From assembly GCA_017447685.1 (NCBI GenBank), contig JAFSMZ010000053.1, positions 2,914 to 66,913 of the forward strand: a stretch of DNA of 64,000 bases, read 5' to 3'. Positions 1 to 6,124 of the stretch are shown one piece after another. Numbering within the stretch: the stretch's first letter is position 1; every line of letters starts with the position of its first letter. Both the position numbers and the translations under genes were made by a program. Source of the DNA: Oscillospiraceae bacterium (GTDB taxonomy: Bacteria; Bacillota; Clostridia; Oscillospirales; Oscillospiraceae). Under the pieces are notes generated by a model. It made no database searches and had not been told where the DNA came from. It saw nothing but the letters and a program-made list of their open reading frames with translations.

Positions 1-100
1 CATGGATTATTCCGACCCGGAGAACATCCGTCCCCAGTTTTTCCGGGCGGAGCTGCAGCGGGGCATACTGGACCTGCGGGATTGTGAGGTGTTCCGATGA
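1..100 (+). CDS. cas5: Cas5 (type I-C Cas5c/Cas5d) C-terminal fragment; the gene starts upstream of the window
   Basis: Open frame from the window edge to TGA 98-100 (..DYSDPENIRPQFFRAELQRGILDLRDCEVFR*). ATGA overlap with the cas8c start at 97. Sits directly upstream of cas8c-cas7, as in type I-C operons. Confidence 0.5.
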   Translation, partial: MDYSDPENIRPQFFRAELQRGILDLRDCEVFR

Positions 101-1851
101 TCCTTCAGGCTTTGGTGGATTATTATGAGGAACTGGCCTCGCAGGGAAAGCTTCCCCGTCCCGGCTGGGCAACAGTAAAAGTGTCCTGGGCGCTGGAGAT
201 CGACGGATCCGGCAGGCTTCTGGATGTGCTTCCCCTCCGCCATCCCAGCGAGGACGGGAAGAGGATGCTGCCTCTGGAGATGGAACTGCCTGCTCCGGTG
301 AAACGCTCCTCCGGTGTGCTGCCGAACTTCCTGTGGGACAACTCCTCTTATCTCCTGGGGCTGGACAACAAGGGAAAAGCAAAACGGGCGGAGGAGTGTT
401 TTGCAGCGGCAAAAGCCCTGCACCTCAAATTGCTCTCTGATGCGGACAGCCTCACAGCGAAAGCAATCTCTGCGTTTTTCTCCACCTGGGATCCGAAGAC
501 GGCGGACAAGATCTCTGCCTTTGCTGCCCATCGGGAGGACCTGCTTGCCGGGGAAAACCTGTGCTTCTTCTGCTGCGGCGTCTTTGCGCAGGACGACCCG
601 CTGATCCGGGAGATTTGGGAGGCTGCTTATGAGGAAAGCGCCGAAGGAGAAGCCGAGCCCTGCCTCATCACCGGAAAGGAAACTGTCCCCGAGCTTGTAC
701 ACCCTGCCATCAAGAATGTCCGGGACGCCCAGTCCTCCGGCGCGGCGCTGGTCTCCTTCAATGCTCCGGCCTTCTGCTCCTACGGAAAAGAGCAAAACGC
801 CAACGCGCCTGTCAGCAAATATGCGGCCTTTGCCTATACCACGGCGCTGAACCGCCTCCTGGCGGATCGGGAGCATGTCAAGGTCATCGGCAATACCACG
901 GTGATCTATTGGGCCAAAAGCGCTGAGAGCCAGTATCAGGATATTTTCACCGCTCTGCTTGACGGCGCGGGCGACAGCGTGACCGACGCCGATCTCAATG
1001 CGCTCATGACCTCCGTCGCCGCTGGCAAGCCCTACAACTATGACGGGCTTCCCATCGAGCCGGAGAACGAATTCTTTATCCTTGGCATCTCGCCCAACGC
1101 AGCCCGCTTGTCCGTCCGCTTTTTCTATCGCAGCAGCTTTGGCCGCGTCGTGGAGAACCTGAAACGGCATTATGACGATATCCGGATCGTCTCCGACGGA
1201 CGCAGCAAGTGGAACACCACGCCCCTCTGGGCGCTTCTGCGCGAGACGGTGAACCAGAAAGCCAGCGATAAAAGCCCGCTTCCCCAGCTGGCCGGAGACA
1301 TGATGAAATCCATGCTCGGCGGCGGGAGATATCCGGAGACGCTCATGCAGCAGACCCTGCTGCGCATCCGGGCGGAGCATATCGTCACCCGCGAAAAAGC
1401 GGGTATCGTAAAAGCCTATCTGATCCGCAATACAGAAAATCATCCCCAACGGGGATCCATCATGGAGGTGACAACCGTGTCCTTGAATCCCGAAAGCGCG
1501 TATCCCCCTTATGTCCTCGGACGGCTCTTCGCCGTGCTGGAGGGCGCCCAGCAGGCGGCCAATCCCGGCATCAACGCCACCATCAAAGACCGCTTCTTCA
1601 ATTCCGCCTGCGCAACGCCTGCGGCGGTCTTCCCCCTCTTGCTGAAGCTCTCCAACAGCCATCTGAAAAAGATGGACGCGGGAAAAGCCATCTGGTGGTC
1701 CAGACAGATCGGAGAGCTCATCGACCGGCTCGGCGTGGACTTCCCCGCGCACCAGACGCTGCAGGAGCAGGGCGCTTTTATCCTCGGCTATTACCATCAG
1801 ACCCAGAAACGTTTTGAAAAGAAAAACAATACCGATAAGGAGGCAGAATAA
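97..1851 (+). CDS. cas8c: Cas8c/Csd1, type I-C Cascade large subunit
   Basis: 584-aa ORF. The N-terminus MILQALVDYYEEL.. and the length are recognised as Csd1-like. Flanked by the cas5 fragment and cas7, and a type I-C-style repeat array follows. Confidence 0.85.
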   Translation: MILQALVDYYEELASQGKLPRPGWATVKVSWALEIDGSGRLLDVLPLRHPSEDGKRMLPLEMELPAPVKRSSGVLPNFLWDNSSYLLGLDNKGKAKRAEECFAAAKALHLKLLSDADSLTAKAISAFFSTWDPKTADKISAFAAHREDLLAGENLCFFCCGVFAQDDPLIREIWEAAYEESAEGEAEPCLITGKETVPELVHPAIKNVRDAQSSGAALVSFNAPAFCSYGKEQNANAPVSKYAAFAYTTALNRLLADREHVKVIGNTTVIYWAKSAESQYQDIFTALLDGAGDSVTDADLNALMTSVAAGKPYNYDGLPIEPENEFFILGISPNAARLSVRFFYRSSFGRVVENLKRHYDDIRIVSDGRSKWNTTPLWALLRETVNQKASDKSPLPQLAGDMMKSMLGGGRYPETLMQQTLLRIRAEHIVTREKAGIVKAYLIRNTENHPQRGSIMEVTTVSLNPESAYPPYVLGRLFAVLEGAQQAANPGINATIKDRFFNSACATPAAVFPLLLKLSNSHLKKMDAGKAIWWSRQIGELIDRLGVDFPAHQTLQEQGAFILGYYHQTQKRFEKKNNTDKEAE

Positions 1852-1852
1852 A

Positions 1853-2743
1853 ATGTCTGAAGCGATCAAGAACAGGTATGAATTTGTGGTGCTCTTCGAT
1901 GTGGAGAACGGCAATCCCAACGGCGACCCCGACGCGGGCAACATTCCCCGGGTCGATCCCGAGACGGGCTACGGCATTGTGACCGACGTCTGCCTCAAGC
2001 GCAAGATCCGCAATTACGTGGAGACGGTGAAGGAAGATCAGCCCGGCTTTGAGATCTACATCAAGGAGGGCGTCCCCCTCAACCGCAGCGACCGGCGCGC
2101 CTTCGAATACCTGGGCCTGGAAGAGGGCAAGGTCAAGGAGGCAAAGAAGGCCGACAAGGATCTGGACCGCAAAGTCCGGGACTTCATGTGCCGGAACTTC
2201 TTTGATGTCCGTACTTTCGGAGCGGTCATGACCACCTTCACCAAAAACGCCCTCAACTGCGGCCAGGTCCGCGGCCCCGTGCAGCTCTCCTTTGCCCGCA
2301 GCGTGGACCCCATCGTCCCTCAGGAGCTCACCATCACCCGCACCGCCATCACCACCGAGGCGGATGCGGAGAACAAGAAAACCGAAATGGGCCGCAAATT
2401 CATCGTGCCCTATGGCCTCTACCGGGCCGAGGGCTATGTGTCCGCCAATCTGGCCCGCAAGACCACCGGTTTCTCCGAGGAGGATCTGGAGCTTCTCTGG
2501 CAGGCGATCTTGAACATGTTTGAAAACGATCATGCCGCCGGAAGAGGCAAGATGGCGGTACGCAAACTCATCATCTTCAGGCATGATTCCGAGCTCGGCA
2601 ATGCCCCGGCCCATAAGCTCTTTGACGCGGTCTCTGTCAAGCGTCTGGACGAGAGCAGCCCCGCCCGCTGCTTTGCCGATTACGTCCTCACCGTGGACGA
2701 GTCTGCGATCCCTGCCGGCGTGACCGTGGAGTACAGGGAGTAA
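1853..2743 (+). CDS. cas7: Cas7c/Csd2, type I-C Cascade backbone subunit
   Basis: ATG 1853 is preceded by AAGGAGG (1837-1843). MSEAIKNRYEFVVLFDVENGNPNGDPDAGN.. is the Csd2/DevR-type N-terminal motif. The track ORF start at 1814 lies inside cas8c and is rejected. Confidence 0.9.
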   Translation: MSEAIKNRYEFVVLFDVENGNPNGDPDAGNIPRVDPETGYGIVTDVCLKRKIRNYVETVKEDQPGFEIYIKEGVPLNRSDRRAFEYLGLEEGKVKEAKKADKDLDRKVRDFMCRNFFDVRTFGAVMTTFTKNALNCGQVRGPVQLSFARSVDPIVPQELTITRTAITTEADAENKKTEMGRKFIVPYGLYRAEGYVSANLARKTTGFSEEDLELLWQAILNMFENDHAAGRGKMAVRKLIIFRHDSELGNAPAHKLFDAVSVKRLDESSPARCFADYVLTVDESAIPAGVTVEYRE

Positions 2744-2746
2744 AAA

Positions 2747-4525
2747 GTCTCGCCCCACGTGGGCGAGTGGATTGAAATAATGTGATCCCCTGCAGCGATT
2801 TCCGCGTGGAATAGTCTCGCCCCAGGCGGGGCGAGTGGATTGAAATCCTTCTTCCCGCCCAAACGCGGCACCCCGCGCCCGTCTCGCCCCACGCGGGGCG
2901 AGTGGATTGAAATGGAAAGAATCATCTGTAGGAGGGATGAAATTGGCGTCTCGCCCCACTCGGGGCGAGTGGATTGAAACTCGCCCAAAAATTCCTTCGT
3001 ATGTTTCCACACGGTGTCTCGCCTCATGCGGGCGAGTGGATTGAAATTACGGCAATCCCCAGAATTGCGAGCTGCCCATCTTGTCTCGCCCCACGCGGGG
3101 CGAGTGGATTGAAATCTGCAGTGTCATAAGTATGCCCACGGCAAATGCAGTCTCGCCCCACGCGGGGCAAGTGGATTGAAATCTCGTAGGTGATGCGCTC
3201 ATCTCCGATCACAAGCTGTCTCGCCCCATGCGGGGCGAGTGGATTGAAATTACATGCCGGTGCAGCCTGCCGGTTACGGCTACGGTCTCGCCCCGAGTGG
3301 GGCGAGTGGATTGAAATCCTGTGTTTGCCAATATCGGTAACCAGCCTGTTTAGTCTCGCCCCAGGCGGGGCGAGTGGATTGAAATCTTGACCACTGCATC
3401 TACGAGCTGGACAAGCACAGTCTCGCCCCACGCGGGGCGAGTGGATTGAAATTTGGTGCGAGTTTTGGCCAACGCCACAGCCTCCTTGTCTCGCCCCACG
3501 CGGGGCGAGTGGATTGAAATAACGGAGAAATTGGTGAGCTGCCTGGTTGCCGCTGACTCGCCCTGCTTGGGCGCGTGGATTGAAATTCGCCGAAAAACTC
3601 TTTTGTTTGCTTCCACACGCCTTCTCGCTCCATGTGGGCGAAGGGATAGAAATAACATCCTGAAACTTGTGGTTGGATTTATCGTGGGTCTCGTCCTACA
3701 AGGGGTGAGTGGATTGAAATATCATGGACATTGACCGAGGTATCAACACCAGCGGTCTCGCCCCATGCGGGGGAGGGGATTGAAATGTACAGGTACGGAT
3801 TGGTACGCCTTATTTGCATGTCTCGCCCCACGCGGGGCGAGTGGATTGAAACTCGTTCCGGATGATCTTCCGGCGGGCAATCTCCGTCTCGCCCCACGCG
3901 GAGCGAGTGGATTGAAATAGTGCCTTTTTTCAAGCACTCCTTTCAATTTGGTGTCTCGCCCCACGGGGGGCGAGTGGATTGAAATAACGACCTTGAGCTC
4001 AACTGCTACATGGTGGCCGTGTCTCGCCCCACGCGGGCGAGTGGATTGAAATATCGAGAACGTGGGCGCACCTGTCCTGAAGGGTACGTCTCGCCCCAGA
4101 CGGGACGAGTGGATTGAAATACCAAGGGCATTGCTTACGCCGAGTTTTTTGACGTGTCTCGCCCCACGCGGGGCGAGTGGATTGAAATAAAAAGACAGGC
4201 CGGCACTTTCCCATTGAGGATCGTCTCGCCCCACGCGGGGCGAGTGGATTGAAATCAGATGCAGAAGTGGCTTGAAAAGTCTGCTCTTTGTCTCGCCCCA
4301 CGCGGGGCAAGTGGATTGATATTTCTTTTGGGCTTCGTATTTGGAAATCTCGCTCATGCCTCGCCCCACGTGGGCGAGTGGATTGAAATGGCCTTAGATT
4401 GATATAAAAACCGCAGTGCTTCGGTCTCGCCCTACGCGGGGCGAGTGGATTGAAATTCTCCGAAAAACTCCTTGGTATGTTCCCAGACCAAAGTCTCGCC
4501 CCACGCGGGGCGAGTGGATTGAAAG
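2747..4525 (+). CRISPR. CRISPR array, 27 repeats and 26 spacers, type I-C repeat family
   Basis: Consensus repeat GTCTCGCCCCACGCGGGGCGAGTGGATTGAAAT (33 bp; internal palindrome CGCCCC/GGGGCG; 3' ATTGAAAT handle). Repeat starts: 2747, 2814, 2881, 2948, 3016, 3083, 3150, 3218, 3285, 3353, 3420, 3488, 3555, 3621, 3688, 3755, 3820, 3886, 3953, 4021, 4088, 4156, 4223, 4290, 4358, 4424, 4493. Spacers are 33-36 bp. Confidence 0.97.
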
Positions 4526-4573
4526 GTGTCGTCAATCTCATAGCCCTTCGGCGTGTCGAAGTCACCCCCAACG

Positions 4574-4605
4574 AAAAAAGCAGAGGCAAAAGCCTCTGCT
4601 TTTTT
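4574..4605. terminator. Bidirectional rho-independent terminator
   Basis: AAAAAA-GCAGAGGC-aaaa-GCCTCTGC-TTTTTT. Lies between the array end and the convergent peptidase gene. Confidence 0.7.
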
Positions 4606-4731
4606 CATAAAGAAAGACGGATTGTACCCGCAGGGCAGGCCCTACGACCAGTTTGAGAGCAGGTCTTGCGATGACAGTGTAATTTGAAGCGAGTCTTTTG
4701 TTATCTCTGTCGTCGCTCTTCCGCCTTCCGC

Positions 4732-5964
4732 TCACTGCTCTTTCCTTTTCCGGAACAGGTATTCGTCCAGCTCCTTCTTCACCTTCTCGGGGATCTCCCG
4801 GCCCACCGGGCAGACGGCCGCCTGGCACATCCGCCGGGTAAACTCCGCGATGAAGGCGATGTCCTTCTGCAGCTGCTCCATGCTCAGCACCTCGGGCCGG
4901 TCGTAGCGGCAGTGGATGGGGGCCACGTTGGTGCCGGCGATCCGCGCCAGGGACAGCGCAGGCACGCCCTTGTCGGCAAAGGGGGTGGAGTCGCTGGAAT
5001 AGACGCCGACGCTGGCCGTCAGGGGGAAGCCCAGCTCCGCGCCCATGTAGCTCAGATAGTGGGCCAGCTTCTCCTCGGCGGAGACCCGGGCGATGAACTT
5101 GCCCATGATGGTGCCGATCATGTCCAGATTGATGTTCAGGGCGACCTGCGAAAGCTCCTCCTCGTGGGCCTTCACATAGGCCTTGGAGCCCAGCAGACCC
5201 CGCTCCTCGCTGCCGCAGAACACAAAGCGCAGCCCGTAGCGGCGCTTTTTGCCCTTCATGGCCTCCAGCACGCCAAGCAGCCCTACGCAGCCGGTCATGT
5301 TGTCATAGGAACCGTGGGAGAGGGCGGTGCTGTCGTAGTGGGCGGAGAGGACGATCCACTCCTCCGTCTCCCCGGGCAGCTCCGCGATCACGTTGTGGGA
5401 GGCGCCCTCGTATTCCTTCTGCCGGATCCGGATGCGGATGCGCTGCGCCTTGTTTTTCACGAGACTCACCGCGCTCTCGCTGTGGATCATGGCGCAGAGC
5501 ACCTTCCGCTCCTCGCCCACCACGTGGGCCCGCAGGTCCCGCTCGTCGATGTCCCGGTTGGGGAAGTGGAGATTACCGTACTGGAACAGGATGCCCCTGG
5601 CCCCGGCCTTCATCAGGTCCTGATAGGGGAAGAAGCCGATGCCCTGGCTGTCCAGCAGCACGATCTTGTCCTTGGCCCCGGCGATGGAGACCTTGTCCAG
5701 CCCGGGCATGTAGTAGAGCTCGCCCTCCACCTCGCCGCTGCCGCAGCAGAAAAAGCCCTTGCAGGGGATCTCCTTCCCGTCGGCAAAGACCCGGGCCTCC
5801 TCCATCTCCGCCATGGGCACGGGGAAGCTCTCCAGCCAGGCCTTCGCGCCCAGCGCCTCGCAGCGGGCCTTCAGATATTCCGCCGCCTGCAGCTCCTCAG
5901 GCGTGCCGCTGCGGTGGACAAAGTCGGTGTCCAGAAAGATCTTTTTCAAAGCGCGTTGATTCAT
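4732..5964 (-). CDS. M28-family metallo-aminopeptidase (with PA-like insert)
   Basis: Start ATG 5964 is preceded by AAAGGAG (the track ORF start at 6099 has no RBS). Motifs HYDSTALSHGSYDNMTG, FCGSEERGLLGS and LNINLDMIG resemble the M28 zinc-ligand blocks. Confidence 0.7.
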   Translation of the reverse strand: MNQRALKKIFLDTDFVHRSGTPEELQAAEYLKARCEALGAKAWLESFPVPMAEMEEARVFADGKEIPCKGFFCCGSGEVEGELYYMPGLDKVSIAGAKDKIVLLDSQGIGFFPYQDLMKAGARGILFQYGNLHFPNRDIDERDLRAHVVGEERKVLCAMIHSESAVSLVKNKAQRIRIRIRQKEYEGASHNVIAELPGETEEWIVLSAHYDSTALSHGSYDNMTGCVGLLGVLEAMKGKKRRYGLRFVFCGSEERGLLGSKAYVKAHEEELSQVALNINLDMIGTIMGKFIARVSAEEKLAHYLSYMGAELGFPLTASVGVYSSDSTPFADKGVPALSLARIAGTNVAPIHCRYDRPEVLSMEQLQKDIAFIAEFTRRMCQAAVCPVGREIPEKVKKELDEYLFRKRKEQ

Positions 5965-6124
5965 GATGCTTGCTCCTTTCGTCTTTCTTGCCCCCACATC
6001 ATAGCAGACGCCGCCCGGAAACGCAACAGGGCGGCGCCTGTATTTGTCGCCTGCCGCGCGACCTCTCCCGTCCGAAGCCGCGCTATACTCAGGCTGCAAT
6101 CAAGAAAAAGGAGGAACACAGCAT

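Follow-up and report, generated by a model that had tools for sequence, protein, structure and literature searches.

Can a type I-C CRISPR-Cas system (clusters of regularly interspaced short palindromic repeats, with associated proteins) persist once the genes that add spacers, and the leader that precedes the array, have gone? The question is raised by a locus at the left end of a 64,000-nucleotide stretch of DNA from an Oscillospiraceae bacterium (assembly GCA_017447685.1, contig JAFSMZ010000053.1, positions 2914–66913), referred to here as the window, in which the CRISPR array follows the stop codon of cas7 almost immediately. We consider it probable that the locus is a genuine type I-C system, functional but frozen, whose array forms the 3′ tail of the cas operon. 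Positions are those of the window unless the contig is named, and L-numbers denote I-C loci of relatives, gathered by similarity to the Cas7 and Cas8c proteins of the window. Protein families were called with NCBIfam and Pfam profiles. The source is a fragmented metagenome-assembled genome (MAG) of 83 contigs, 86% complete, and a search of public runs finds the stretch in ruminant-gut metagenomes.

The junction between cas7 and the array

The initial annotation placed the first repeat 3 nt past the cas7 stop codon (2741–2743), at position 2747, and the sequence bears this out. The gap at 2744–2746 reads AAA, and repeat 1 (R1) occupies 2747–2778. In an alignment of the junction, the C-terminus of Cas7 is identical to that of L095 and L097, canonical members of the same clade.

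CRISPR arrays are often misassembled and the MAG is fragmented, so that a junction of this kind might be an artefact of assembly or binning, such as a collapse of repeats concealing cas4-cas1-cas2. The check for a collapse at 2744–2747 was made with Logan contigs of two public runs from different studies, X1 and X6, the latter from goat gut. The contigs span 1912–2841 and 2114–2910, respectively, and both traverse cas7, R1, spacer 1 and repeat 2 (R2) with 0 mismatches and 0 gaps, which excludes the collapse. Moreover, the left flank of the junction is formed by unique cas7 sequence, and L093, an independent metagenome contig (Cas8c 98%, Cas7 99%), is arranged alike, with TAA, 3 nt and a 32-bp first repeat. 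A like layout is found for other lineages (L005, L072, L094 and L096) in other assemblies. We conclude that the junction is genuine and regard an artefact as extremely unlikely.

Absence of the adaptation module and the leader

On the effector side the locus has the features by which type I-C is recognised, namely Cas8c, a Csd2-family Cas7, Cas5c, an HD-helicase Cas3 and the I-C repeat type. On the adaptation side two are lacking, the cas4-cas1-cas2 module and the leader. The whole-genome profile search proposed in the initial annotation gave no match to the Pfam Cas1, Cas2 or Cas4 families anywhere in the 86%-complete MAG, and the companion search of the MAG for other arrays, with the same repeat or of any kind, found none.

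Canonical relatives have their first repeat about 2150–2200 nt past the cas7 stop. The adaptation genes and the leader are thus missing, as had been claimed, but the missing length is about 2.15–2.2 kb and not 2.5 kb. Canonical leaders, of about 150–200 nt, end in a conserved ...TTTTGCT next to the repeat. This leader end is absent from the window, where AAA alone precedes R1, and the 3-nt gap contains neither leader nor remnant of cas4.

The module is also absent at the same place in L093, L094, L096, L005 and L072. The 2 kb that precede cas3 in L093 contain no adaptation genes, only a MatE fragment, a helix-turn-helix (HTH) gene and small open reading frames (ORFs), and the homology of L093 to the window contig starts only about 20 nt before cas3. 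The 5.2 kb upstream in L094 carry HlyD-like, histidine-kinase and ATPase genes, and the 4 kb upstream in L005 a tyrosine-recombinase fragment and DUF6809. Cas1 has no match in the genomes carrying L005, L072 and L037. The absence of Cas1, Cas2 and Cas4, the concordance of L093 and the heterogeneity of the repeats described below support the interference-only, adaptation-dead reading put forward initially; the supply of Cas1–Cas2 in trans has no positive support.

Drift of the array and retention of the effectors

The array has the orientation of the cas genes, as first noted. Its 27 repeats lie on the + strand, each ends in ATTGAAAT, and they comprise a GC-rich hairpin of 7–8 bp and a conserved handle, TGGATTGAAAT. 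This repeat type (32–33 bp, GC-rich hairpin, 3′ ...ATTGAAA(C/T)) is common to 70 or more related loci. The exact consensus is found in only 6 of the 27 repeats, and seven are 32-bp variants. R1 has the CACGTGGGCGAG variant, which was said to recur at repeat 25 (4358–4389); it does so, with one further difference there. Repeat 12 of L093 is identical to the R1 variant of the window.

New spacers duplicate the first repeat, and for this reason active arrays are homogeneous. For 77 arrays from related loci, identity to the consensus of the array has a median of about 99%. L005 (78%), L093 (84%) and the window (89%, scored over repeats 1–9) all rank within the five most heterogeneous of these, and R1 differs from R2 both in the window and in L093. 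The heterogeneous repeats and an R1 unlike R2 therefore argue against acquisition since the module was lost. Degeneracy is pronounced in a block formed by repeats 13–16 (3555–3786), in which repeat 14 has an odd handle, GGGATAGAAAT. Repeat 8 of L093 has the same handle and flanks the same two spacers as repeat 14 of the window; the degeneracy is therefore older than the split between the two strains.

The changes that have accumulated in the repeats fall to a large extent (20 of 50) in four loop positions (p = 6e-7), the 11-nt handle is depleted of changes, and pairing of the stem is kept in 95% of cells. Four spacers, ordered differently, are common to the window and L093, and both ends of the arrays carry unique ones. 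Within the shared spacers 4 of 137 nt differ, far below what the divergence at synonymous sites (about 0.16) would predict (binomial p = 9e-7).

The window, L093, L094 and L096 each have the four effector genes intact. In the comparison with L093, the ratios of nonsynonymous to synonymous substitution (dN/dS) for cas3, cas5, cas8c and cas7 are 0.094, 0.125, 0.069 and 0.023, at synonymous distances (dS) of 0.18–0.35; in that with L096 they are 0.05–0.16, at dS of about 0.8–1.0. L093 has the same junction, and the values support the view that the effectors have been under purifying selection since the loss of adaptation. The low dN/dS, the conserved spacers and the concentration of repeat changes in the loop together point to selection that has retained working effectors, spacers and signals for CRISPR RNA (crRNA) processing after the module was lost.

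Several observations weigh against a locus that works but no longer grows. The contig begins only 207 nt upstream of cas3, and distant cas1-cas2 genes are possible in a MAG that is 86% complete. All spacers close to cas7 differ between the window and L093, the four shared ones being internal, and in a contig of goat-gut run X6 an R1-type 32-bp repeat stands on each side of a 34-nt spacer that is absent from the window. No spacer has a perfect database target. An RNA run, X17, gave only short contigs of a related strain, for which carry-over of DNA is possible, and no evidence of transcription. Covariation in the hairpin is not significant, the observed values being equal to those of shuffles; compensatory evolution of the repeat stems was dropped as an explanation on this ground, and only the contrast of loop with stem and handle stands.

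The spacer differences, the X6 unit and the incompleteness of the MAG would suit an array that is still growing, with Cas1–Cas2, and perhaps Cas4, supplied in trans by a plasmid, a phage or an unassembled region of the genome and inserting at the cas7-proximal repeat without a leader. For other systems that lack an adaptation module, acquisition in trans has been documented (bioRxiv 10.1101/2023.06.23.546257). The X6 unit could represent acquisition at repeat 1, or it could come from elsewhere in the array of another strain; it need not adjoin cas7, because the R1 variant is also found at repeat 25 and at repeat 12 of L093. Growth is opposed by the lack of any Cas1, Cas2 or Cas4 match in the MAG, and of Cas1 in the genomes of three further relatives without an adaptation module, and by the loss of the conserved leader end adjacent to the repeat. 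Moreover, insertion duplicates R1, whereas R1 is unlike R2 in both the window and L093, and the unique spacers at both ends, with the shared ones reordered, fit loss and rearrangement better than polar growth. Overall, we consider continued growth improbable.

A second alternative is that the locus is a decaying, non-functional remnant, with an array that is neither transcribed nor processed and cas genes that are becoming pseudogenes. It has no leader promoter and many degenerate repeats, among them the block at 3555–3786; of the other loci, L072 is down to a single repeat with no spacer, and L117 has no array within 7 kb past cas7. Decay is nevertheless difficult to reconcile with effectors that are intact in four loci, with dN/dS of 0.02–0.16 over dS of 0.18–1.0, with shared spacers far more conserved than synonymous sites, and with repeat changes that spare the crRNA handle and in most cases leave the stem paired. 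We judge it very unlikely, and prefer a functional locus in which the array is frozen.

Proposed working of the locus

In such a functional, frozen locus, an old deletion of about 2.15 kb would have taken out the leader together with cas4-cas1-cas2, leaving the array as the 3′ tail of a cas3-cas5c-cas8c-cas7 operon. A promoter-like site is present upstream of cas3, and none was found on the + strand in 2400–4800. We infer that the array is transcribed by read-through from the cas operon. Transcription would start at the cas3 promoter, pass through cas7 into the array and end at the terminator at 4573–4606. The fold of this terminator (−25.2 kcal/mol, z = −8.0; equalled in stability by 0 of 200 shuffles) and a PF04389 match in the gene beyond confirm that the array end is closed by a terminator and a convergent peptidase gene, as the initial annotation held; the terminator closes both the cas-array transcription unit and the peptidase gene.

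The Pfam Cas6 family has no match in the 86%-complete MAG, and Cas5c is the probable pre-crRNA nuclease here. Following published I-C biology, it would cleave the repeats at the base of the hairpin to give crRNAs that carry a 5′ handle of 11 nt and, at the 3′ end, a hairpin, and the conserved stem and handle are consistent with such processing. A Cascade of Cas5c, Cas8c and Cas7 would then find targets with a 5′ TTC or TTT and recruit Cas3; the candidate protospacers described below, though imperfect, lend support to both the protospacer-adjacent motif (PAM) and the orientation in this step. No spacers would be gained. A memory rich in spacers against conserved parts of Microviridae capsid genes would instead be inherited, slowly mutated, duplicated and pruned, as the comparison with L093 supports.

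If read-through and processing by Cas5c take place as proposed, a cas operon can carry a working type I array as its 3′ tail. The layout would then be a very compact one, possibly useful to builders of minimal I-C tools. More generally, the locus would be a natural and repeatedly evolved example of CRISPR immunity without its spacer-adding half and without a leader.

An internal start for Cas11c within cas8c has been described for other I-C systems. Inside cas8c of the window, an ATG at 1462, a GGAGG at 1464–1468 and a GTG at 1477 lie in frame, and it is plausible that initiation at GTG 1477 could give a putative small subunit, Cas11c, from the last ~125 residues.

Spacers and candidate targets

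A single sequence recurs, in differing versions, as spacers 4, 13 and 26 of the window and as one spacer of L093. Their differences occur mostly at every third base, and spacers 4, 13 and 26 would therefore have been captured separately from alleles of one coding site, so that the array appears to have captured a single site at least three times. A first search of IMG/VR with a pattern for the spacer 4/13 family gave no matches. A degenerate search of the same database at the protein level located the site on two microvirus contigs of about 5 kb, L156 and L157, within the major capsid gene, where it encodes VW(K/E/N)HTKEFFG and has a 5′ TTC or TTT on each.

Together with the matches of spacers 9 and 24 (Table 1), four of five candidate protospacers, all of them imperfect, have a 5′ TTC or TTT. 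The cultured-phage database gave weak and imperfect spacer matches only. We therefore treat the imperfect matches as likely classes of target and not as proven targets. The PAM side of the candidate protospacers agrees with transcription of the array on the + strand. The last base of the repeats is T except at repeats 4 and 17, where it is C (2980 and 3852), and at repeat 27, where it is G (4525). The final C of repeats 4 and 17 fits a last repeat base derived from the PAM, which for spacer 4 would be TTC. No self-targeting spacers were found.

Recurrence among type I-C lineages

To place the window among its relatives, we took a census of about 112 loci with sufficient sequence downstream of cas7. 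The full module is present in 76, a further 15 have at least cas4, and 21 fail the coverage cut-offs; among these 21, about a dozen have clear lesions and the rest look like threshold or short-contig cases. A damaged adaptation module is thereby found in about one locus in eight, if short contigs (L037, L096 and L098 among them) are included. An array abutting cas7 is the extreme of this common decay.

A repeat begins 0–26 nt past the cas7 stop in the window and L093 (3 nt), L005 (about 7 nt), L096 (9 nt), L094 (26 nt) and L072. In L072, from a rumen Ruminococcaceae MAG, the segment 10897–10965 consists of the cas7 stop, a single degenerate I-C repeat and an intrinsic terminator, with zero spacers. 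An IQ-TREE analysis of Cas5, Cas8c and Cas7 places the window, L005 and L072 among canonical loci, in three separate clades with support of 100, 98 and 100, and in a tree of the window clade L094 is sister to canonical L095 (100/100). A single clade of all abutting loci is rejected by these strongly supported branches. Because the window, L005 and L072 fall in separate clades and L094 is sister to a canonical locus, the state in which a repeat abuts cas7 appears from the trees to have arisen at least four times independently in I-C loci of gut Clostridia. The deletion in L094 looks recent, given its canonical sister, and the repeats of this locus are still uniform. L096, with TAA followed by 9 nt, may share the same old junction as the window.

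A scan of IMG/VR with Cas7 yielded five loci with cas4 immediately after cas7, and so no indication that phages carry the abutting form. Separately, the human-gut contigs L117 and L119–L121 represent more I-C loci without cas4 after cas7. The array of L121 lies about 330 nt past the cas7 stop, and L117 is the locus without a nearby array mentioned above.

How the module may be lost

The lesions of related loci bear on the manner of the loss. L034 has cleanly lost the segment between two copies of CTGGCCCG, starting 2–9 nt past the cas7 stop; judged from the sequence, loss by illegitimate recombination at microhomology is shown in this case. The lesion of L037 starts +1 to +30 from the stop and leaves the leader in place, and those of L053, L042 and L076 start at about +28, +110 and +152, respectively. 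The left deletion ends thus seem to concentrate at the cas7/cas4 boundary far beyond a uniform spread over 2 kb, and this clustering, together with the ends that lie at repeats in separate lineages, makes it testable how, and how often, gut bacteria lose their adaptation modules.

A few bases past the cas7 stop, within the first 30 nt, the start of cas4 contains GGAGGA..TCCTCC. In many loci (L012, L027, L102 and others) this start encodes E-E-D/E-F-L-Q and the 6-bp palindrome is perfect. It may act as a deletion hot spot, and deletion stimulated by hairpins, those of the cas4 palindrome and of the repeats, is an attractive idea.

The 26 nt between cas7 and the array in L094 match its sister L095 at about 35% of positions, by hand alignment, and lack the leader motif. 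A deletion ending exactly at the integrase cut site is unsupported for L094, and its right end more likely lies inside a spacer, because the 26 nt resemble neither cas4 nor leader. For the window, the 3-nt gap is uninformative on an end at the cut site; a right end inside an older array, as first suggested, is plausible.

Selection surely contributes as well, in that a deletion of the leader promoter would be kept only if the cas operon still transcribes the array. A specific and recurrent mechanism behind the fusion, be it hairpin-stimulated breakage and joining at the cas4 palindrome and the repeat, or strand transfer by Cas1–Cas2 at the repeat boundary, is a tentative proposal that we think rather unlikely to be correct. 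Were it so, the module would repeatedly excise itself and leave a stable leaderless array embedded in an operon, and the same scar would be expected across type I subtypes.

Relation to known systems

The canonical type I-C (Dvulg) arrangement, found in the 76 loci with a full module (for example, L024, L028 and L095), is cas3-cas5c-cas8c-cas7-cas4-cas1-cas2-leader-array. The window shares with it the same four effectors in the same order, all scoring beyond their NCBIfam cut-offs, the lack of a Cas6 match, and the repeat type and orientation; the PAM is probably of the TTC type as well, to judge from imperfect candidate protospacers. It differs in having no cas4, cas1, cas2 or leader, in an array only 3 nt past the cas7 stop and in its highly heterogeneous repeats.

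Effector-only type I sets are known. According to a review (PMC6079278, citing Boudry et al. 2015), partial I-B operons without an adaptation module are widely kept in Clostridioides difficile, and the window resembles these in being an effector-only type I cas set in a Clostridia lineage. The C. difficile systems differ in subtype, I-B with Cas6, and in their dispersed arrays, each with a leader of its own; some 90% of strains also have a full operon with cas1, cas2 and cas4. That review describes no array fused to a cas stop codon.

Type IV systems and the Tn7-associated CRISPR-associated transposons (CAST) are likewise adaptation-less and rely on acquisition in trans, as stated in the preprint cited above (bioRxiv 10.1101/2023.06.23.546257). 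As in the window, cas1 and cas2 are missing from these systems, and an array, short in their case, adjoins the effectors. They are distinct subtypes borne by mobile elements with altered effectors, whereas the window holds a chromosomal I-C locus with an intact Cas3 and no evidence of a donor in trans. The array fused to the cas7 stop is a real variant of a known system. In the literature we found neither I-C arrays described as joined to the stop of cas7 nor a recurrent origin of such arrays, although searching of this kind cannot prove absence.

Features of the locus

The coordinates of the locus are collected in Table 1. The scores of Cas8c and Cas7 may be compared with NCBIfam cut-offs of 218.65 bits for TIGR01863 and 182.25 bits for TIGR02589. 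The TGA stop of cas5c (98–100) overlaps the ATG of cas8c.

Table 1. Features of the type I-C locus and its surroundings, in window coordinates unless the contig is named
Feature	Position	Strand	Basis and remarks
cas3	contig 208–2340, upstream of window	+	Intact; HD TIGR01596, 79 bits, and helicase core TIGR01587, 105.7 bits, in one 710-aa ORF
cas5c	contig 2351–3013; 3′ end is window 1–100	+	TIGR01876, 161.7 bits
cas8c (Csd1), 584 aa	97–1851	+	Intact; TIGR01863, 472 bits, full length
cas7 (Csd2), 296 aa	1853–2743	+	Intact; TIGR02589, 358 bits; TAA stop 2741–2743
CRISPR array, 27 repeats of 32–33 bp and 26 spacers of 33–36 nt	2747–4525	+	Repeat search
Spacer 4	2981–3015	+	Paralogous with spacers 13 and 26
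Spacer 9	3318–3352	+	86% identical to Gokushovirinae/Microviridae major capsid genes; weak, E = 0.2–0.6; 5′ TTT in one target
Spacer 13	3587–3621	+	Paralogous with spacers 4 and 26
Spacer 24	4323–4357	+	89% identical to faecal phage scaffold; 5′ TTC PAM; E = 0.01
Spacer 26	4457–4492	+	Paralogous with spacers 4 and 13
Last spacer, number 27	4526–4560	+	Read from sequence
Truncated, degenerate repeat stump of 13 nt at trailer end	4561–4573	+	10 of 13 bases match 5′ half of repeat
Bidirectional intrinsic terminator	4573–4606	.	Fold; A run, GC-rich stem, 4-nt loop, T run
M28-family peptidase gene, convergent	4732–6099	−	Pfam PF04389, 112 bits; chromosomal context outside the system

Periodic repeats on contigs C3, C5, C43 and C70 of the MAG were considered as candidate arrays and rejected, being tandem palindromic repeats in intergenic or coding sequence. 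Those at C5:14560–15050, C3:1–300 and C43:35540–35790 are intergenic tandem units of about 67–77 nt that form GC-rich palindromic hairpins. The palindromic tandem units have no unique spacers between them, and similar elements occur upstream of cas3 in L093. Also upstream of cas3 in L093, between the MatE fragment and the HTH gene (L093:600–870), TTATGTAAAC is repeated about six times within 250 nt, in the manner of iterons or operator sites.

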